Assembly (NCBI GenBank): GCA_046497275.1
Contig: JAWOFX010000175.1
Span: forward strand, 1,993-33,992
Length of the DNA: 32,000 nucleotides
Reading direction: 5' to 3'
Source of the DNA: Promethearchaeia archaeon
GTDB lineage: Archaea > Asgardarchaeota > Lokiarchaeia > Sigyniarchaeales > SOKP01
Both the position numbers and the translations under genes were made by a program. The notes beneath the pieces are model-generated. The model did not search any database, had not been told where the DNA came from, and saw only the letters and a list, made by a program, of their open reading frames with translations. Of the stretch, positions 249-10,759 are shown piece by piece (position 1 is the first letter of the stretch; each line of letters begins with the position of its first letter).

Positions 249-255
249 CTAAAAA

Positions 256-906
256 ATCGGTCTTAAAGATAAACTTTTCCCAAAGAAGGGAAGTGACAAA
301 GATATCACAATAACCAAAGCGAAAAGCCATATTCGAAAACTTGCATTGATGAACAAAAATTACACTAAACGAGCTGAGATCAGTAGAAAGAATGCTAAAA
401 TTGCCTTGAAGCGTGGTGAAAAAAATAGAGCAAAGAACTATTTAATACAATATAAAAGTTATCAAAATAAAATTGACCGAACAAATAATATTCGGTCAAA
501 AATAGAAAGACAAATTCAAGCAATAGAAGAAGGGCAATTGGTTTCTCAAACTGGAGATCTAATGGGCGGAATGAGAGATGAACTTAAAGAAATTGCTACT
601 ACTGCATCACCTACCAGAGCAGCGGAAATAAATGAAGATGCTGAATTATATGTCACTGAAATAGAGGAAGCTGCAGAAATATTAGCTGGAGATCCAGAAA
701 TTGATTTGGCTATTGATGTGAATGATGAATTAGAACAATTAGAGACGGAAATGTTGCTTGAGCAAGGAGGCACAATGCCTGAAGTCCCTTCAGACGAATT
801 ACAATATATCTCTGAATTTGATACGGAATTAGAAGAACCTGAACTTCAAGATAAAGAAAAGTTAGAGAAAGAAATTGAAAAGTTAAGAAAAGAATTAGAA
901 GAATAA
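256..906 (+). CDS. snf7: ESCRT-III / Snf7-family protein, Vps20/32/60 class (about 216 aa; proposed non-canonical ATC start, ORF track starts at TTG 346)
   Basis: Basic N-terminal helical hairpin (AKIALKRGEKNRAKNYLIQYKSYQNKIDRTNNIRSKIERQIQAIE), acidic C-terminal half, MPEVPSD (MIM2-like) and a terminal amphipathic helix LEKEIEKLRKELEE. The in-frame upstream extension IGLKDKLFPKKGS resembles the typical MG-x-F-x-K Snf7 N-terminus. Confidence 0.88.
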   Translation: MGLKDKLFPKKGSDKDITITKAKSHIRKLALMNKNYTKRAEISRKNAKIALKRGEKNRAKNYLIQYKSYQNKIDRTNNIRSKIERQIQAIEEGQLVSQTGDLMGGMRDELKEIATTASPTRAAEINEDAELYVTEIEEAAEILAGDPEIDLAIDVNDELEQLETEMLLEQGGTMPEVPSDELQYISEFDTELEEPELQDKEKLEKEIEKLRKELEE

Positions 907-2092: not shown

Positions 2093-4246
2093 TTAGCTAA
2101 AATATTTCTTATTATCAAACTTGCGCCCAATATTTCGTATCGACTCATCCTCTCTGATTCGACCATCTAGATTTCGAATTTTTTTATTTATTATGTAGAG
2201 GTCTTGCTTAAGATTTTTAAACGCTCTTAAATAATCCACTTCAGTGATTTTTCCTTCATCAAACTTGGAATCTAAGTTTTTTAAAGTTTCAATAATACTG
2301 AATCTTTCTTTTTTTAATTCGAGCATATGTTCTTGGTTTTCATCTTTTTCTTCAAAAAGACCATCGTTTTGATACTTGCTTGGATCAAATGATAAATCAT
2401 TATCTCTAAAAAATTCTGATAGATAATTTCGATTATAATCATGAATAGAAGGATTATTCCTATTTGTATTATATAATGATTCAGAAGATCGATTTAATGA
2501 TTCTGCGTTTATAAAATCGCTCAAAGCTCTGTCAAGATTACTCTTCACATTATATCCTTCTTTTTGAGCTCGTTCCAATTTTTTCATCAAAATATTCTTA
2601 TCTTCAGGATTTAATGGATTTGGTTGGTTTCTAGCAAAAATTCGTGAATCGTAATTCTGATATCTATTTGGATATAATATATTTTGGAATTGGAAATTGT
2701 TTGGATCATTAACATAATTCGGATGATTTTGATATTGATGAGGATATTGATGGGGGTATGAGGAGACCGGTTGATAGAGGTGGGGCTGATTATTTTGAAG
2801 AGTTGAATATTCTTGTGAATAAGGCGGTATATTATAGGGATTTATAAAATAATTTGGTGGAGGGGTTGAATTTTGGTTATAATGTTGATTCTGATTATTT
2901 CCTCGAAAATAATCATTTTGAGGAGGAAAAGTATTATTATTGTGATAACTATTGGGAGAATTTTGAAACCTAGTAGTTCTTTGGTGTTGAAGACCTAAAT
3001 GATCTGAGTCGAAATTTTTCTCATTATTGAGTTTGCATTTTAAACTGAAGAACGAATTGATTCCATCTTCGATAAAATTCTTTAAATTCGTAAGATCTAT
3101 TTTTAAATTTTCAATTATATTAGCAGATTTTTTGTCATAAATAGCAGTTTCATCGAAATTTCTTGCGAGTAAAATATATTCAATAACTCTTGAAATTGCT
3201 TTATTTGGGAGAGAAAATTCATATTCCCCATAGGCGAATTTTACAAAAAGTCTTTTGAATAACTTTCCTTTTTCTTTGATTCTCTGAAGATCATCTACAG
3301 GGGCTTTAAATATTAGTTCTTGCTTTGTCTTTAATAATCCATATTCATGAACAAATGATAAATCTAAATTGGTAATAAATAAGATGCCTTTATTTCTTTT
3401 GAATATATCTTGGTAATTTGTACCATTGGATAATTTAGCATTGATCGCATAAACTGGTTTTTCATCTTCTGCTAAATTTATAAACCTTTTGTACTCAGTA
3501 AAATATTTATTAATCTTTTCGATAAATGAGAGGTTTTTTTTTATAGAATCGATATCTTTATTCATTGATTCTATATTACTTTCAATAAAATCTCTAATTG
3601 ATTGATTACTTCTATATAGATTTTCTAATATTCCTTCAATAATTCTTATGCTAGTATTAGGTTGAGAATAAATGTCAAAAAAGTATTCTTTATTAAGCGA
3701 AAGGTGATGAAAATGAATACTTATTTTCTCCATCATTTGATCTTCAATATATTTCACAAGTTTAAACAAAGAAAGGAGTTCTGCTTCCATTTTAGGGAAA
3801 TGATAGCATTTTATAGGTGGAGCTCTTGCTTTTTTTATTTTTTGTCTTAACACATAAAGTCCATTAACAAGATCCCTGAGAGGATCGATAAAATTTCGTG
3901 TTTCTTTAATTAATTCTAAAAAAGACTGTTCTAATTTTTCTTTTTTTTCATAAATATTAATAATCCGATGAGAATGGCATTTTGGACAAGATTTAATATA
4001 TTGTGTGATCTGGATTACATTATCACTCTCACAGTCTTTACATATTTTTATTGTTTCACCTTTCTTAGAATCGGATTCCTTTATGTCTATATTTTTTGAA
4101 TTACAATCTTGGCATACAAATGTTTCTACTTTATCATCATCTAAACAATCAGAGCAACAACTAGCACCACAATTCTCACAATAATAAGCTAAAGGCTCTC
4201 TTCCTTGGCAGAATCTACAGAAATTTTCTGATTTATGCTCTGACAT
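2093..4246 (-). CDS. Multidomain protein: CxxC Zn fingers, coiled coil, PH-like fold, N/Q/P/Y low-complexity region, C-terminal steadiness-box/SHOCT-like hairpin (putative ESCRT-associated adaptor)
   Basis: 717-aa ORF with ATG and upstream AAAGGT. Six CxxC pairs lie in residues 10-90. The domain assignments are by visual pattern only; the CDS itself is secure, its function is not. Confidence 0.6.
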   Translation of the reverse strand: MSEHKSENFCRFCQGREPLAYYCENCGASCCSDCLDDDKVETFVCQDCNSKNIDIKESDSKKGETIKICKDCESDNVIQITQYIKSCPKCHSHRIINIYEKKEKLEQSFLELIKETRNFIDPLRDLVNGLYVLRQKIKKARAPPIKCYHFPKMEAELLSLFKLVKYIEDQMMEKISIHFHHLSLNKEYFFDIYSQPNTSIRIIEGILENLYRSNQSIRDFIESNIESMNKDIDSIKKNLSFIEKINKYFTEYKRFINLAEDEKPVYAINAKLSNGTNYQDIFKRNKGILFITNLDLSFVHEYGLLKTKQELIFKAPVDDLQRIKEKGKLFKRLFVKFAYGEYEFSLPNKAISRVIEYILLARNFDETAIYDKKSANIIENLKIDLTNLKNFIEDGINSFFSLKCKLNNEKNFDSDHLGLQHQRTTRFQNSPNSYHNNNTFPPQNDYFRGNNQNQHYNQNSTPPPNYFINPYNIPPYSQEYSTLQNNQPHLYQPVSSYPHQYPHQYQNHPNYVNDPNNFQFQNILYPNRYQNYDSRIFARNQPNPLNPEDKNILMKKLERAQKEGYNVKSNLDRALSDFINAESLNRSSESLYNTNRNNPSIHDYNRNYLSEFFRDNDLSFDPSKYQNDGLFEEKDENQEHMLELKKERFSIIETLKNLDSKFDEGKITEVDYLRAFKNLKQDLYIINKKIRNLDGRIREDESIRNIGRKFDNKKYFS

Positions 4247-4864: not shown

Positions 4865-6268
4865 ATGAAAGTCTCGTTTTCAAAAATTAAAATTACTCCA
4901 AATGATTATATAGGAATGCCCATGGCAGGATATTCGCGTCCTGATCCATGTTTAGGAAAGTTAGATGATATTTTTGCATATGGTGTATTAATAGAGCAAG
5001 AGAAATCAGATGAAAATAACAAGTTTCTTTTATTACTTTCTTTCGATCTCCTAAAAATTCCAATCTCAATTGCCACTTATTTTAAAGAAAAAATTGAAAA
5101 AAACTTCAAGGGAATAAAAGAGAAGAATATTCTAATTCATGCTACGCACACGCATTCTGCTCCAGATCTAACAGGAGAGTTTCATTGGCCTGGTGGTACT
5201 TTAGCAGTCGTTAAGGGTATCATGTTTGGAATAAATCAAAACGATAAATTTATAGTATGGATTGGAGATCAGATTCTTAAGTTAGTCGATCATTTATTAA
5301 ATTCATTACAAAACTCCAAAATTTCATGGATCAAGAAAGTTTTCAATCCAGATATAGTAATTAATCGAAGACATCCCTTAAGAAAACCTAAGCCGGAACT
5401 TGGAGTGATTTCCTTTAAAGATCTCGATAATAACATAATAGGATTGATTATAAATTATGCTTGTCATCCTACTACCTTATCTTTATTCAATAATAAGCTA
5501 TCAGCAGATTTTCCGGGGAGAATCGTCTCAGAAATCTCAGAAATTACTAATGGAAAAACAAAATGCATATACTTCAACGGTCCAGCAGGGGATTTAAATC
5601 CAATCACCACATGTGGAACAGATTATGAAGCTTTGAAAGATAATAAAAGTCCTATTTATACCCAATTCGGAACGTACAGACATACAAAAAAACTTGGTTT
5701 TCAAATAGCTGAAGAAGCTTTAAAACTAGCGGAATCAATCCCATCAAACAATTACTATGAAAATATCACATTCCAATTATATATTAAAAATATTTTAGTC
5801 CCTCTAAAAGATCCTAAATATTTTACCTCTTCATGGTTTCAAAATAAGTTATTATACATAATCAAAAAGTATGTTTTATTATCTGTGATCTTAAGTCTCT
5901 ATGAAAAGATTAATTTCCCAATTTTTAAAATTAAGAAAAAGAGAAAACACATTTTTGCGGAAACACTTGTCCAATATATTGATTTTACTGTTCAGAATAC
6001 AACTAAAAAGAGAAAATTCACTATTTTTACAGTACCAGGCGAGCTCTTTGAGGAGATAGGAAGGGATCTTATTGAAGAGTCTCCTGTTGGTACTAGTAAT
6101 AGTTTTTTATTTCAAAATTCTAATGATTGGATAGCATATCTTTTTCCAATTAAAGAATATATACAGATTGGAGGGTATGAACCTGTTGCTAGTTTTGGAC
6201 CTTTGTGCGGTTTTTATATAGAAAGAGAGATGTTAGATTTTTTTAAAGATATCAAAACACTCTTATAA
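4865..6268 (+). CDS. Neutral/alkaline ceramidase-like metal-dependent amidohydrolase
   Basis: Motifs MPMAGY, LSFDLL, HATHTHSAP, NYACHPT, LSADFPG, GPAGDLNP, VPGELFEEIG and GGYE match the neutral ceramidase N-terminal domain family. Confidence 0.72.
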   Translation: MKVSFSKIKITPNDYIGMPMAGYSRPDPCLGKLDDIFAYGVLIEQEKSDENNKFLLLLSFDLLKIPISIATYFKEKIEKNFKGIKEKNILIHATHTHSAPDLTGEFHWPGGTLAVVKGIMFGINQNDKFIVWIGDQILKLVDHLLNSLQNSKISWIKKVFNPDIVINRRHPLRKPKPELGVISFKDLDNNIIGLIINYACHPTTLSLFNNKLSADFPGRIVSEISEITNGKTKCIYFNGPAGDLNPITTCGTDYEALKDNKSPIYTQFGTYRHTKKLGFQIAEEALKLAESIPSNNYYENITFQLYIKNILVPLKDPKYFTSSWFQNKLLYIIKKYVLLSVILSLYEKINFPIFKIKKKRKHIFAETLVQYIDFTVQNTTKKRKFTIFTVPGELFEEIGRDLIEESPVGTSNSFLFQNSNDWIAYLFPIKEYIQIGGYEPVASFGPLCGFYIEREMLDFFKDIKTLL

Positions 6269-7724: not shown

Positions 7725-8924
7725 CTACACTATTAATTCATATGCTTTTTTCCAAGCGTCTTTATTGATTTTATTAAACTTTTCCATGAAATCATCTTCC
7801 TTGAGATTTTCTTCTTGTTCAACAAGATCTCTGACATTTAAATAAATTTTTCTTTCCAAAGCATCAAATTCATTCATATAAGTTAACTTTTCTTTTTCAT
7901 TGACTTGCTTTTTGAAAGGTTCGATAAATTTTTCATGTTTTATCCAAAACCAATCTTCATCTTTTTTCTCATACGGACCTGGAGGGTTTACTTTTTGATC
8001 TTGTATCGGAAATGTATAAGGTTTATACATACTCAAACAAGGATGGTTGCTTCCTGTAAACCAATGAATTGATTTTTTCTCAGGAGGTTTTAAATGCGAA
8101 ACTTGAGAACCCACAGATTCAAAAGCACCATGCATACATATTCCAGCTTCATGCTCTCGCAAGAATTCCATCATCATATCAACTGTAATAGATCCTGCAG
8201 CATCAGTTAATAATTCTGTTGATTTTACTACTCGTGGAGTTAAAGGGATATTATCCCCGATAACTTTCGATTTGGCAAAAGTCTTAGCAAAATCAAAATC
8301 ATCATCATCTTTGCAATATTCGTTTTCAATAGCATGTTGAATAATCCCTTCTCTTCTCATGTCTCCCTTACCGCGAATTGATAAGCTATTAGATATAGCC
8401 CTTACATCCTTTACTTCCTCGACGATCCACCATTTATCAGATGTCTCTAATACATATGCTTCTTGATGATCTGCTATAATATAGGAATTATGATATAACA
8501 TTTTTCCGTTATATGCACAATTACCGCCTTGATTGTATTTTTCAAGAAGATCTATTATTGTATCAAGCGCACATTCTGCCGTTTTACATCGTTCTAATCC
8601 CAATCGTAAAAGATCCATCCCAAGTAATCCAGTTTTTCTTATTTTTTCTTTAGTATATACCGCCTCGTTGCCGATGGTTACCCCAAACTCGTTGGTACCC
8701 ATCTCCGCCCCCCACATCCACCACGGTTGGCTTAAAAGTACAGCATAGGTTTCTTTTACCTGAGGTATAGATATATAAGTGCATTCTACTTCATCTTCCT
8801 CATGAGTTCTGCGCGGTTGATGTGTTATTAATTGCACTTCATCACTCAGACGGTCACTATTTTTCCCAAAGATCGTATACTCATCTAAGGAAGCGTTTGG
8901 TAAGGATATTAAGGTATCACACAT
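7725..8924 (-). CDS. Peptidase C69 / secernin-like Ntn-hydrolase
   Basis: ATG at 8924 gives M-C-D-T-L (N-terminal Cys nucleophile), preceded by GTGA. Motifs FGKNSDR, PWWMWGAEMGTNEFGVTIGNEAV, GLLGMDLLRLGLER and QGG. Confidence 0.85.
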   Translation of the reverse strand: MCDTLISLPNASLDEYTIFGKNSDRLSDEVQLITHQPRRTHEEDEVECTYISIPQVKETYAVLLSQPWWMWGAEMGTNEFGVTIGNEAVYTKEKIRKTGLLGMDLLRLGLERCKTAECALDTIIDLLEKYNQGGNCAYNGKMLYHNSYIIADHQEAYVLETSDKWWIVEEVKDVRAISNSLSIRGKGDMRREGIIQHAIENEYCKDDDDFDFAKTFAKSKVIGDNIPLTPRVVKSTELLTDAAGSITVDMMMEFLREHEAGICMHGAFESVGSQVSHLKPPEKKSIHWFTGSNHPCLSMYKPYTFPIQDQKVNPPGPYEKKDEDWFWIKHEKFIEPFKKQVNEKEKLTYMNEFDALERKIYLNVRDLVEQEENLKEDDFMEKFNKINKDAWKKAYELIV

Positions 8925-9122
8925 AATTATCACATCGTGAAGTTTTAGAATTAATTAATTATCTTTTATTTGTTTTTAATTAGAATTGCAGTTTCTATAT
9001 TATATTATTAATCATTATTTTCTATTAACAAGAGTCCCAAATGAATAAAAATGAAATTGAGTAATTTTTATTCATTTTTCAAAGATTTTCAGTAGTAATT
9101 ATTTTGAAATCTTCTATTTGGG

Positions 9123-10313
9123 TTATTTTAAGGTTTCATGAAAAATTGAAAAAGGTGCGGCTGTGGATCTCCAGATTGCGATATCCTCAAATCCTAATAT
9201 TTCTGCAAAAGTTTTTTTTCCATTACACGTCTTTTTAACTTTTTCCCATAAATTTATTGCAACATCTTCTACTTTTTTGTCTTTCGTGATAATTGTGCTC
9301 GCATCAATATCAATATTGCTTGCCATCCAATCACAAGTCTTCGGATTTCCACAAATTTTAATTACGGGAGAAACGGGGTTTCCACAGGGACTCCCTCTTC
9401 CGGTAGTCATAATAATAATCTGCGCCCCTGCCGCTGCCAATCCTGTCATGCTTTCAACGTCCAAACCTGGTTCTATCATCAGCCAGAGACCTTTATCCTT
9501 AGGTTTTTCTGAATATTCTAATATTCCTTCAATTTGTGCGGTTCCCGCTTTCGCAATAGTACCTAATGATTTTTCCTCAATAGTGGTTAATCCCCCTTCT
9601 ATATTTCCAGGAGTTGGTTGAATTCCCCGAAAATCTATCCCAATTTTCATAGTGTTATTTAGAAAAGTATCTATAGTCTCTCTTATCTTCTCCGCAACTT
9701 TATCACTCTTAGCTCGTTCCATAAGAAGATGTTCCGTGCCTACCCATTCGGTAAATTCAGGTAGGATTGAGGTACCTCCCAGCTCCACGACTTTGTCTGA
9801 GACTATTCCTACAGCAGGATTTGCAGTAATCCCTGAGATTGAATCGGATCCTCCACATTCGAGACCTAAAATTAAATTAGAGAAATCAAAGGGCTCTCTT
9901 TTCAATTCTTTAGCTTCCTCAGCCATTTTCTGACCAATTGTGATGCCTTTATCGATAGCAGCAGTTGTCCCTCCTTGGACGTCTTGGACATCAAAATATT
10001 CTATAGGTTTTTTAGATCTTTTAATTTGCTTTCCAATTAGTTTACTCGTTATATTTTCACACCCAAGGCCGACTACAACTGTTCCAAAAACATTAGGATT
10101 TTTGCCTAATCCCACTAAAGTTCTTAAAGTATATGAAAAATCCGGTCCAAACTGTCCACACCCAAGTGGATGGGTAATCGCCACGGAATTATCAACCTTT
10201 TGTGATATTTGATCAACGACATGATTTACGCAAACCACAGATGAAATTATTGCGATTTTATTCCTGATTCCAATTTCTCCTTTCGGTCGCTCATATCCCA
10301 TGAATTCTTCCAT
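9123..10313 (-). CDS. UxaA/GarD-family dehydratase (altronate/galactarate dehydratase-like), large subunit
   Basis: GYERPKGEIGIRNK, HPLGCGQ, VGLGCE, LECGGSDSISGITANPAVG, PTPGNIEGGLTTIEEKSLG and FTTGRG-like MTTGRGSP. The start is placed at ATG 10313, which overlaps the small-subunit stop (TAATG) and follows GGAGGAGGT. Confidence 0.85.
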   Translation of the reverse strand: MEEFMGYERPKGEIGIRNKIAIISSVVCVNHVVDQISQKVDNSVAITHPLGCGQFGPDFSYTLRTLVGLGKNPNVFGTVVVGLGCENITSKLIGKQIKRSKKPIEYFDVQDVQGGTTAAIDKGITIGQKMAEEAKELKREPFDFSNLILGLECGGSDSISGITANPAVGIVSDKVVELGGTSILPEFTEWVGTEHLLMERAKSDKVAEKIRETIDTFLNNTMKIGIDFRGIQPTPGNIEGGLTTIEEKSLGTIAKAGTAQIEGILEYSEKPKDKGLWLMIEPGLDVESMTGLAAAGAQIIIMTTGRGSPCGNPVSPVIKICGNPKTCDWMASNIDIDASTIITKDKKVEDVAINLWEKVKKTCNGKKTFAEILGFEDIAIWRSTAAPFSIFHETLK

Positions 10314-10591
10314 TATTGTGCTACCTCCTCCAAATAATGACTTGTTATATTGTGCGTATGAATCCATTCTCCGATAGCAATTTCCTCAGTAGCAATACCA
10401 ATTATTTGTCCGTATTTTATAATTTTTTCTCCTTTTGTTATATTGCTGAGAGCAAATTTATGACCTAAAGGGATTTTCTGTTTAATATTGATTGATTTAT
10501 CATTAAATTTTAATAACCTACCCTTATCAATTTCTTCCAAAGAAGTTGCACAATTATCTATTTCATCCATAATTATAAATTTATTCGGCAT
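10313..10591 (-). CDS. UxaA-family SAF-domain small subunit
   Basis: 92 aa with DNCATSL, IPLGHKFAL, IIKYGQIIG and GEWIHTHN, typical of the UxaA N-terminal SAF domain. Confidence 0.88.
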   Translation of the reverse strand: MPNKFIIMDEIDNCATSLEEIDKGRLLKFNDKSINIKQKIPLGHKFALSNITKGEKIIKYGQIIGIATEEIAIGEWIHTHNITSHYLEEVAQ

Positions 10592-10759
10592 TTATTTTCA
10601 CTTGTATAAAAATATTGATTTTATTTAATTTCTATATTTTAAAATGATATATTTATCTTTTAGATTTATATTAAATCTTAGTATAATTTCCTATAATATC
10701 TTTTTATATTTTACATTATATTATATTAAGTAAAAATCATAAAATTCATTATAATAGAA

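Follow-up and report, generated by a model that had tools for sequence, protein, structure and literature searches.

No known organisms are more closely related to eukaryotes than the Asgard archaea. To our knowledge, ESCRT-0, Vps37, and a full Vps36 are missing from them, which raises the question of how their ESCRT machinery is directed to membranes and cargo. The obvious candidate for this function is Znr_CC_PH_SB, which is nearly universal in the Asgard phylum and is known so far from computation and one yeast two-hybrid hint.

Makarova et al. 2024 (mBio, PMC10936438) described Znr_CC_PH_SB, also written Znr_PH_CC_SB (asCOG cog.011556), as an Asgard-specific "likely ESCRT-I component" that is "likely ancestral in Asgardarchaeota" and consists of three zinc modules, a coiled coil, PH, and SB (steadiness box). 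In Table S2 of that work, the gene order of Lokiarchaeum GC14_75 is PepD(C69) - L35Ae - cog.011556 - MetE - Vps20/ESCRT-III. A RING-CC-PH-SB scheme was already present in Hatano et al. 2022 (PMC9192718), where a supplementary figure labels the finger 'RING', the Thorarchaeota protein ThorAB25_08990, labelled 'SB', was cloned for yeast two-hybrid analysis, and the SB protein that occurs on its own in Loki- and Thorarchaeota is said, from the two-hybrid work, to be one that 'may interact with Vps28'. The motifs of the Znr_CC_PH_SB family are visible by eye in the ThorAB25_08990 sequence given there, and its probable membership rests on these; a short-peptide look-up of it in our protein set gave no exact match.

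The window, a 32,000-nt stretch of Lokiarchaeia DNA, contains an uninterrupted ORF of 717 codons on the minus strand (the initial annotation gave no strand), near an ESCRT-III gene on the plus strand. The features are as follows.

256-906, plus strand: ESCRT-III (Snf7 family) gene (Pfam Snf7, E 1.6e-11)
2093-4246, minus strand: Znr_CC_PH_SB family protein gene (P0001), 717 aa (ORF and translation, homologues, published gene order)
3977-4219, minus strand: zinc module, residues 10-90, with eight Cys in a RING/B-box1-like arrangement (C10...C48) followed by a four-Cys zinc ribbon (C69...C90) (invariant Cys, Pfam, PDB profile)
3494-3955, minus strand: helical region, residues 98-251, three long helices 98-141, 153-184, and 197-251 (AlphaFold2, pLDDT 94-98)
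3137-3475, minus strand: PH domain of GRAM/GLUE type, residues 258-370, seven strands and a capping helix
2978-3091, minus strand: long helix after the PH domain, residues 386-423 (AlphaFold2, pLDDT about 95-98)
2354-2971, minus strand: N/Q/P/Y-rich disordered linker, residues 426-631, with short helices 547-562 and 570-579 (pLDDT <50, composition)
2114-2353, minus strand: helical hairpin, residues 632-711, steadiness-box-like and predicted to bind Vps28 (Pfam, PDB profile, hhalign, complex model)

The start codon is sound, with M1 invariant across 65 diverse homologues. More than 260 full-length homologues (45-96% identity) were found, and every named one is from an Asgard archaeon. A search of 1.84 billion representatives returned only 128 matches, which represent 50%-identity clusters and whose taxa are not readable from that library, as it carries no names. 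The initial annotation had proposed searching Asgard proteomes for the same architecture; a family match was present in 264 of 301 genomes sampled inside the Asgard phylum (85/90 of the high-quality ones). Given these homologues, cluster representatives, and genome matches, the ORF is far from a chance ORF. No second copy of the whole protein was found in its own genome. Pfam matches of the whole query were all below the curated cut-offs, NCBIfam gave no match, a phmmer search of PDB sequences with the full-length protein was of no use, and feature searches with residues 1-100 and 96-256 gave no usable match.

The gene order in the window (C69 peptidase, L35Ae, the 717-aa gene, MetE, ESCRT-III) was the same as that in Lokiarchaeum GC14_75, and orthology to As_004-p_01543 of that genome is set by this identical order rather than by alignment. 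The protein carries the modules of cog.011556, that is, six CxxC pairs, a long helical region, a PH domain, and, with moderate support, a steadiness box, and the family is widespread in and, by its named matches, restricted to Asgard archaea. Module order is likewise common to both, as is the predicted role, that of an ESCRT-I-type component whose PH domain associates with membranes. Nothing categorical separates the 717-aa protein from the Lokiarchaeum member; the N/Q/P/Y-rich linker is longer here (717 aa vs 650 aa in total), and the first eight Cys appear, by profile only, nearer to a RING/B-box cross-brace than to two separate zinc ribbons. We consider it likely that the gene is the Lokiarchaeia copy of Znr_CC_PH_SB and encodes an ESCRT-I-type membrane adaptor. 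The initial annotation had not recognised the architecture and had named it the best candidate for an undescribed system, which was wrong in view of Makarova et al. 2024 and Hatano et al. 2022: the protein is a known, barely tested candidate, not a new system. We found no experimental work on this protein or its Lokiarchaeia orthologues.

The modules themselves were where the initial annotation had placed them, as the AlphaFold2 model (pLDDT above 90 for residues 10-420 and close to 95 for 632-705) and the searches agreed. The Zn-finger array consists of six CxxC pairs (C10/13, 23/26, 31/34, 45/48, 69/72, and 87/90), and all 12 Cys are invariant in the 65 homologues. The first eight are spaced C-x2-C-x9-C-x2-C-x4-C-x2-C-x10-C-x2-C, compatible with a cross-brace finger. 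Pfam zf-B_box matched 18 of the 65 members and the ANCHR-like B-box 7. The best matches of the zinc profile among PDB sequences were RING fingers (RNF4, 8e-6; also RING2/BMI1, TRIM21, and COP1) and TRIM B-boxes (TRIM2, 6e-5; also TIF1-beta, TRIM3, MID1, and PML). These profile matches suggest a RING/B-box-like finger for the first eight Cys.

The helical/coiled-coil region, noted initially at about residues 96-255, was modelled as the three long helices listed above and matched no Pfam family. The beta-rich segment that follows was indeed modelled as a PH fold, with seven strands at 264-345 and a helix at 348-362. Its structural match to GLUE was comparable to its matches with GRAM and bacterial PH domains. 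A Pfam search of the query's own PH domain gave no match, and the fold says nothing of lipid specificity; conserved basic residues lie around its KxKG...KKK strands. Vps36_ESCRT-II matched 12 of the 65 members, the query not being among them. The PH profile had only insignificant matches among PDB sequences (Vps36 GLUE, E 0.57; a spurious PDK1 kinase). Disorder of the N/Q/P/Y-rich stretch was borne out by low pLDDT over 426-631 and by composition, residues 421-545 (125 residues) containing 26 N, 18 P, 17 Q, and 15 Y. Across the family, the linker spans 17-412 residues and is N/P/S/Q/Y-rich. The motifs PPxY, P[ST]xP, and YPxL are not conserved in it (9-17 of 65 members); P[ST]xP occurs in only 13 of the 65 and is absent from the query.

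The terminal hairpin was modelled as helices 632-663 and 669-711. Vps23_core (PF09454) scored 16.2 bits with the whole protein and 20.3 bits with the hairpin fragment (E 5.4e-4), against a gathering cut-off of 26.8. Among 58 hairpins of the family, Vps23_core was the most frequent specific Pfam match (40/58, best 6.1e-6, all below the curated cut-off), and generic coiled-coil families also matched (APG6_N 44/58; SHOCT 9/58), as did CdvA (8/58). In the PDB profile search, the top matches were designed coiled coils, and the sole natural matches spanning the whole hairpin were yeast Vps23 (0.008) and TSG101 (0.033). Alignment with hhalign also related the hairpin to the Asgard Vps28 N-terminal hairpin (E 4.2e-5). 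Thus, the steadiness-box reading of the initial annotation holds, and the hairpin appears best matched by the Vps23 steadiness box, with moderate rather than strong support; a SHOCT reading was discarded on the count of 9/58 against 40/58.

The own genome encodes Vps28, Vps22, Vps25, Vps4, and two ESCRT-III genes. We modelled residues 625-712 in complex with residues 1-110 of this Vps28, and the ipSAE was 0.79, compared with 0.05 for the best of three controls; the contacts agreed by at least 97% between runs, and the partner had a pLDDT of 83. Of 80 solved complexes, 58 attain the mark applied here, and of 110 mismatched pairs, 2 do; these rates apply only roughly because own alignments were used. 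The model speaks for binding between the hairpin and the Vps28 of its own genome; its score may reflect resemblance to solved ESCRT-I headpieces, and what it shows is therefore likeness, not binding. Other SB candidates in this genome were a disordered SB protein of 592 aa and a third, weaker match (E 4.5e-4), and no further clear SB gene was found beyond these two. A search of the genome for UEV (PF05743) gave no match and was uninformative, since the control also matched nowhere. A 311-aa zinc-ribbon gene beside Vps28 was considered as a Vps23-like partner and rejected, as its product is a multi-pass membrane protein.

The product of the ESCRT-III gene at 256-906 is, by eye, an orthologue of Lokiarch_16760 'ESCRT3A', as judged against the sequence given in Supplementary Data 1 of Hatano et al. 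(PMC9192718). In all five genomes compared, which represent four families and carry just one to four Snf7 genes apiece, a Snf7/ESCRT-III gene is found at a distance of 0.4-8 kb from the family gene; in Thor-type genomes the two genes adjoin. One Lokiarchaeia genome kept the order L35Ae - gene - MetE with no Snf7 gene called within 7 kb on either side. The link to ESCRT is supported by this gene neighbourhood together with the complex model.

These features point to a likely mechanism, every step of which we infer. The rigid N-terminal half, composed of a RING/B-box-like two-zinc finger, a zinc ribbon, a three-helix bundle, and a GRAM/GLUE-type PH domain, would act as a head that recognises membranes and/or cargo. 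It would be joined by a flexible, low-complexity tether some 200 residues long to the C-terminal steadiness-box hairpin, which may plug into the Vps28 N-terminal hairpin in the manner of Vps23 or Vps37 in the eukaryotic ESCRT-I headpiece. Via Vps28, the site would be handed to ESCRT-II (Vps22/Vps25) and then to ESCRT-III and Vps4; the ESCRT-IIIA gene is the conserved neighbour of the putative adaptor gene.

CdvA recruits CdvB, and this offers a model for direct ESCRT-III recruitment, in which the head or hairpin would bind ESCRT-IIIA itself, bypassing ESCRT-I/II, and Vps28 binding would be secondary or absent. That the conserved neighbour is ESCRT-III rather than Vps28, directly adjoining in Thor-type genomes, is consistent with such a route, as are the CdvA matches in eight hairpins, SB and the CdvA hairpin being considered related. 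However, the Vps28 complex model passed strongly and the two-hybrid summary of Hatano et al. (PMC9192718) points to Vps28, so that we regard this route as quite improbable. The zinc module might alternatively recruit an Asgard E2 or bind ubiquitin as the main activity of a TRIM-like ubiquitin ligase or ubiquitin binder, with the SB targeting the protein to ESCRT-I or marking it for regulation. The RING and B-box matches in PDB and Pfam, the eight-Cys spacing, and the 'RING' label in the supplementary figure of Hatano et al. argue for this, and the order of zinc finger and long helices is reminiscent of the RBCC arrangement of TRIM proteins and, with weak profile matches, the B-box of ANCHR (ZFYVE19). 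These scores are modest and driven by Cys spacing, however, and the strand-knuckle-strand pattern in the model also fits the sequential zinc ribbons of Makarova et al. (PMC10936438). Unlike in TRIM/RBCC proteins, the zinc ligands are all Cys, there are no proven E3 features, and PH and SB follow the helices where TRIM proteins usually carry C-terminal domains such as PRY/SPRY. We therefore consider it quite improbable that ubiquitin ligation or binding is the main activity; it and the adaptor function are not mutually exclusive.

More remote from ESCRT would be a generic zinc-ribbon protein that oligomerises through a tail of SHOCT-like or simple coiled-coil type and whose ESCRT-like matches were helical-hairpin noise. 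The query's Pfam matches, all sub-threshold, the coiled-coil and SHOCT matches of the hairpins, and the designed coiled coils heading the PDB profile list would fit such a protein. It is nevertheless very unlikely in view of the predominance of Vps23_core over SHOCT, the restriction of natural full-hairpin PDB matches to Vps23 and TSG101, the hhalign tie to the Vps28 hairpin, the ESCRT-III linkage across four families, the existence of an EAP30-fused form in one lineage, and the fact that all named matches and sampled genomes belong to Asgard archaea, which carry ESCRT. The Foldseek ranking raised one more candidate, a guanine-nucleotide exchange factor for Asgard small GTPases in which the helical bundle and PH domain would mimic Dbl-family RhoGEFs: the top matches of the whole model were DH-PH tandems (Asef, 4e-6; Ephexin4, Vav1, collybistin, and Dbs), and a Roadblock-Arf/Ras GTPase gene adjoins one distant homologue. 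However, TM-scores of these matches are 0.14-0.19 by query. Alignments that extend into the helices mostly fit poorly (rmsd 8-15 A); those with a closer fit (4.6-6.9 A over 165-171 residues) take in only about 60 helical residues beyond PH, and good alignments are confined to the PH domain. The three long helices do not look like a DH fold, and no RhoGEF is among the 25 Pfam families listed for the 65 members. This candidate was dropped as extremely unlikely because its helices superpose so poorly.

The preferred reading, an ESCRT-I-type membrane adaptor, can be compared with the eukaryotic ESCRT proteins, of which the initial annotation had suggested a mosaic of ESCRT-0, -I, and -II. The domain reading behind that proposal holds, but the ESCRT-0/FYVE analogy is weak: EEA1 FYVE reached only E 0.07 in the zinc profile search (RNF4, 8e-6), VHS and FYVE are absent from the Pfam matches listed for the query and the 65 members, and the query has no P[ST]xP. 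A FYVE or ESCRT-0 assignment was rejected on these grounds. Vps23/TSG101 and Vps37 have no counterpart of the zinc/helical/PH head. Unlike Vps23/TSG101, the protein begins with the zinc module and has no UEV domain, which appears neither in the query's Pfam matches nor among the 25 families listed for the members. In the AlphaFold2 model, the disordered linker directly precedes the hairpin, in contrast to the coiled-coil stalk of Vps23/Vps37-type ESCRT-I subunits.

As a member of a described family, this protein is well resolved: its domain boundaries are clear, its own genome supplies a modelled Vps28 partner, and ESCRT-IIIA is encoded next to it as a conserved neighbour, which together make bench tests straightforward. 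To the published description, the present analysis adds the Vps28 complex model, the ESCRT-III linkage in five of five genomes, the spread over 264 of 301 genomes, and the RING/B-box likeness.

The protein appears to share with Vps36/EAP45 a GLUE-like PH domain, zinc fingers, and a probable role in membrane and/or cargo recognition upstream of ESCRT-III. Its zinc fingers precede the PH domain instead of being inserted as in Vps36, and by profile they do not appear to be of NZF type. The EAP30 winged-helix core of Vps36 is absent from the query (no Pfam match); only a variant (P0221) in one small lineage, family f23, has the same head fused to the ESCRT-II EAP30 core in place of SB. This fusion fits a targeting cassette that feeds ESCRT. 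Tentatively, and with the odds against it, the zinc/helical/PH head might be a swappable cassette that provides Asgard ESCRT with its missing front end for recognising membranes and cargo (possibly ubiquitin), serves in Lokiarchaeia as the main SB partner of Vps28, and was re-plugged onto an EAP30 core in one lineage; Vps36 (GLUE + EAP30) could then descend from, or be assembled like, such a fusion.

The P0001 gene (window 2093-4246, minus strand) is an uninterrupted open reading frame of 717 codons, which confirms the 717-aa protein of the initial annotation. By word-indexed search, over 260 full-length relatives were recovered at 45-96% identity; every named one came from Asgard archaea (Lokiarchaeota/Promethearchaeota, and a small number under the names Thor-, Heimdall- or Hodarchaeota), the database annotation being 'hypothetical' or 'B-box zinc finger protein'. 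When 1.84 billion cluster representatives were searched exhaustively with HMMER, 128 of them matched. A profile of 65 diverse members was positive in 264 of 301 sampled genomes of the phylum, and in 85 of the 90 high-quality genomes among them. M1 and all 12 Cys of the six CxxC pairs are invariant among these 65 members. Given these relatives, representatives, genomes and invariant residues, we conclude that the frame is a real gene and not a chance ORF.

The architecture was initially regarded as undescribed. It is that of Znr_CC_PH_SB (cog.011556), reported as three zinc ribbons, coiled coil, PH, and steadiness box (SB), a family that eukaryotes lack, that several Asgard lineages carry and that is probably ancestral; the authors called it a likely ESCRT-I component with a PH domain expected to be membrane-associated (Makarova et al. 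2024, PMC10936438). Their Table S2 lists PepD(C69) - L35Ae - cog.011556 - MetE - Vps20/ESCRT-III for Lokiarchaeum GC14_75, the same gene order as in the window. A 2023 preprint had already used cog.011556 as a 'Steadiness/Vps23 box' asCOG. In a supplementary domain-schematic figure, RING, CC and PH labels were placed on Asgard ESCRT-I-like proteins, and the clone list includes ThorAB25_08990, labelled 'SB' and located next to ESCRT3A, Vps4, Vps25 and Vps22 (Hatano et al. 2022, PMC9192718). Read by eye, the printed sequence of this clone has the hallmarks of the Znr_CC_PH_SB family: CxxC array, PH motif 'G-T-L-F-I-T-N' and hairpin. Thus, both architecture and proposed role are in the literature, the system cannot be called undescribed, and P0001 belongs to a family defined by computation, for which experimental data are minimal.

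The AlphaFold2 model of P0001, built on the 65-sequence alignment, had very high confidence at residues 10-420 and 632-705 and none at 426-631. It reproduced the module order read initially (zinc, helical, PH, disordered, hairpin):

Residues 10-97: zinc module, short strands with CxxC knuckles
Residues 98-141, 153-184 and 197-251: three long helices
Residues 264-362: PH-type segment, seven strands and a capping helix
Residues 386-423: further long helix
Residues 426-631: N/P/Q/Y-rich disordered linker (model and composition)
Residues 632-663 and 669-711: C-terminal helical hairpin

Across the 65 members the linker ranges from 17 to 412 residues and is conserved in composition only, with PPxY or P[ST]xP motifs in a minority. 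Independent structural support for every module, together with its residue limits, is an addition of this analysis.

The zinc profile (residues 5-100) matched RING domains (RNF4, 8e-6; RING2/BMI1, TRIM21, COP1) and TRIM-type B-boxes (TRIM2, 6e-5; TRIM3, TIF1-beta, MID1, PML), whereas FYVE scored only 0.07, so the proposed ESCRT-0 analogy could not be maintained. In Pfam, zf-B_box matched 18/65 members and the ANCHR-like B-box 7/65. Cys 1-8 follow the spacing of a B-box1/RING-like cross-brace, Cys 9-12 that of a zinc ribbon. This sequence evidence suggests a RING/B-box-like first finger, a lead added here to the published description.

Folded in isolation, the PH domain reached pLDDT 88. This model matched Lam6 (1.7e-4) and the yeast Vps36 GLUE domain (2.4e-4) in the PDB (TM 0.53-0.59), and GRAM-domain proteins among Swiss-Prot models (sterol glucosyltransferases, GEM, Ysp2/Lam, Aster, TBC1D8/9, myotubularin). 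Sequence matches in the family were to bPH_3 (24/65), GRAM (20/65) and the Vps36 GLUE family (12/65); P0001's own sequence matched none of these three. By structure, GLUE, GRAM and bacterial PH domains match about equally well. Structure and family sequence matches together establish a PH fold of GRAM/GLUE/bacterial-PH-like subtype.

On isolated hairpins, Vps23_core was the commonest specific Pfam family (40/58; best E 6.1e-6, all below the curated cut-off); generic coiled-coil families, SHOCT (9/58) and CdvA (8/58) also matched. SHOCT, part of the contrary outcome named in the initial annotation, is a weaker reading of the hairpin than Vps23_core. Among PDB sequences, a profile search aligned just two natural proteins over the full hairpin, yeast Vps23 (E 0.008) and TSG101 (E 0.033). 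The window's genome (G000) has a Vps28 gene, and hhalign comparison with an Asgard Vps28 alignment matched the hairpin to the N-terminal one of Vps28 (probability 70%, E 4.2e-5). Modelled as a complex, Vps28 residues 1-110 and P0001 625-712 gave ipSAE 0.79 (best of three controls, 0.05), contacts agreeing at least 97% between runs and partner pLDDT 83; the mark used is reached by 58/80 solved complexes and 2/110 mismatched pairs, counts that are only rough for self-made alignments. Because ESCRT-I headpieces are solved structures, this passed model, also an addition of this analysis, shows likeness to them, Vps28 binding being a prediction. For the free-standing steadiness-box protein of Loki- and Thorarchaeota, yeast two-hybrid assays were taken to suggest a possible interaction with Vps28 (Hatano et al. 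2022, PMC9192718).

The window's genome encodes a second clear SB protein (592 aa, L010:259-2037, G000:C24), nearly all E/K/P-rich and disordered, whose C-terminal hairpin matches the SB profile (E 1.1e-8), and a weaker third match (E 4.5e-4). The 592-aa protein could supply a third hairpin, in a Vps37- or Mvb12-like role, to an ESCRT-I headpiece formed with Vps28 and P0001. A Vps28 C-terminal-domain match (E 4.4e-5; L001, G000:C127:1114-1392, minus strand) lies in a 793-aa open frame that probably belongs to the large, multidomain class of Vps28-C proteins described for Asgard archaea (Makarova et al. 2024, PMC10936438). Directly upstream of Vps28 and co-directed is a 311-aa protein (L007:7439-8374, G000:C33) with an N-terminal zinc ribbon, its sole Pfam match, and several predicted membrane-spanning stretches; in Hodarchaeia, ESCRT/ubiquitin genes reportedly have Yip1-like proteins in their vicinity.

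P0001 is flanked by MetE-like and ribosomal protein L35Ae genes, with an ESCRT-III (Snf7) gene two genes away and a C69 peptidase gene farther out. By eye, the ESCRT-III product closely resembles Lokiarch_16760 'ESCRT3A' (Hatano Supplementary Data 1), and from this likeness appears to be one of two core subunits and no extra paralogue; the other gene is on another contig with Vps22, Vps25 and Vps4. Family-gene positions were compared with all Snf7 matches in five genomes of four families: Snf7 lay 0.4-8 kb away in 5/5, kin genomes not being independent, and directly adjoined in both genomes of family f9, with only 1-4 Snf7 genes per genome of 2.6-4.5 Mb. In a sixth genome, also of Lokiarchaeia, the order L35Ae - gene - MetE is preserved, and no Snf7 gene was called in the 7 kb inspected on each side. 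How widely the family and this linkage occur is added here.

In all three sampled genomes of another family, f23, the zinc/helical/PH head is joined to an EAP30 (Vps22/36-type) winged-helix core (E 1.8e-11) replacing linker and steadiness box, a Vps36-like architecture found in only three 90%-identity clusters:

L003:1641-3446: EAP30-fused variant P0221
L018 (G053:C138:81900-86702), L019 and L020: associated loci

Some 7-9 kb away are a stand-alone Vps22 gene and a distinct short ORF, the hairpin of which matches the family SB profile (E 1e-15); a Snf7 gene is also near.

Other readings of P0001 were weighed. The gene neighbourhood would suit a CdvA-like protein recruiting ESCRT-III directly, which we consider unlikely. 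A TRIM-like E3, whose sole basis is the RING/B-box profile of the zinc finger, is improbable and would itself be compatible with an adaptor role. That P0001 is a coiled-coil protein outside ESCRT is very doubtful, being hard to reconcile with the ESCRT-III linkage, the EAP30-fused variant and the Vps28 results. Least credible is a DH-PH-like protein: this likeness ranked top in Foldseek but was mostly lost on re-alignment (8-15 Å for most alignments including helices), and the few at 4.6-6.9 Å extend the PH-domain match by just ~60 helical residues. The initial interpretation is supported in part: its modules hold, and so does its ESCRT link, which the Vps28 model and the ESCRT-III linkage support.

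The window's ESCRT-III frame (253-906, plus strand) is open upstream of its first ATG/TTG at 346. Residues encoded from 256, I-G-L-K-D-K-L-F-P-K-K, match the Lokiarch_16760 ESCRT3A N-terminus (M-G-L-K-K-K-L-F-P-R-K-K), which suggests that the true start is probably the non-canonical Ile codon at 256; standard ORF calling probably removes ~30 residues. In a distant Asgard genome the family gene P0162 has a Roadblock-Arf/Ras small-GTPase fusion on one side and a ribophorin-I-like gene, then glycosyltransferases, on the other, a trafficking/glycosylation-flavoured neighbourhood (L017:4757-5704 and 8889-10673). A 467-aa ORF at window 4865-6268 (plus strand) has a sub-threshold match to the neutral/alkaline ceramidase N-terminal domain (E 3.3e-6; 26.5 bits vs cut-off 32.1), which is unusual for an archaeon.
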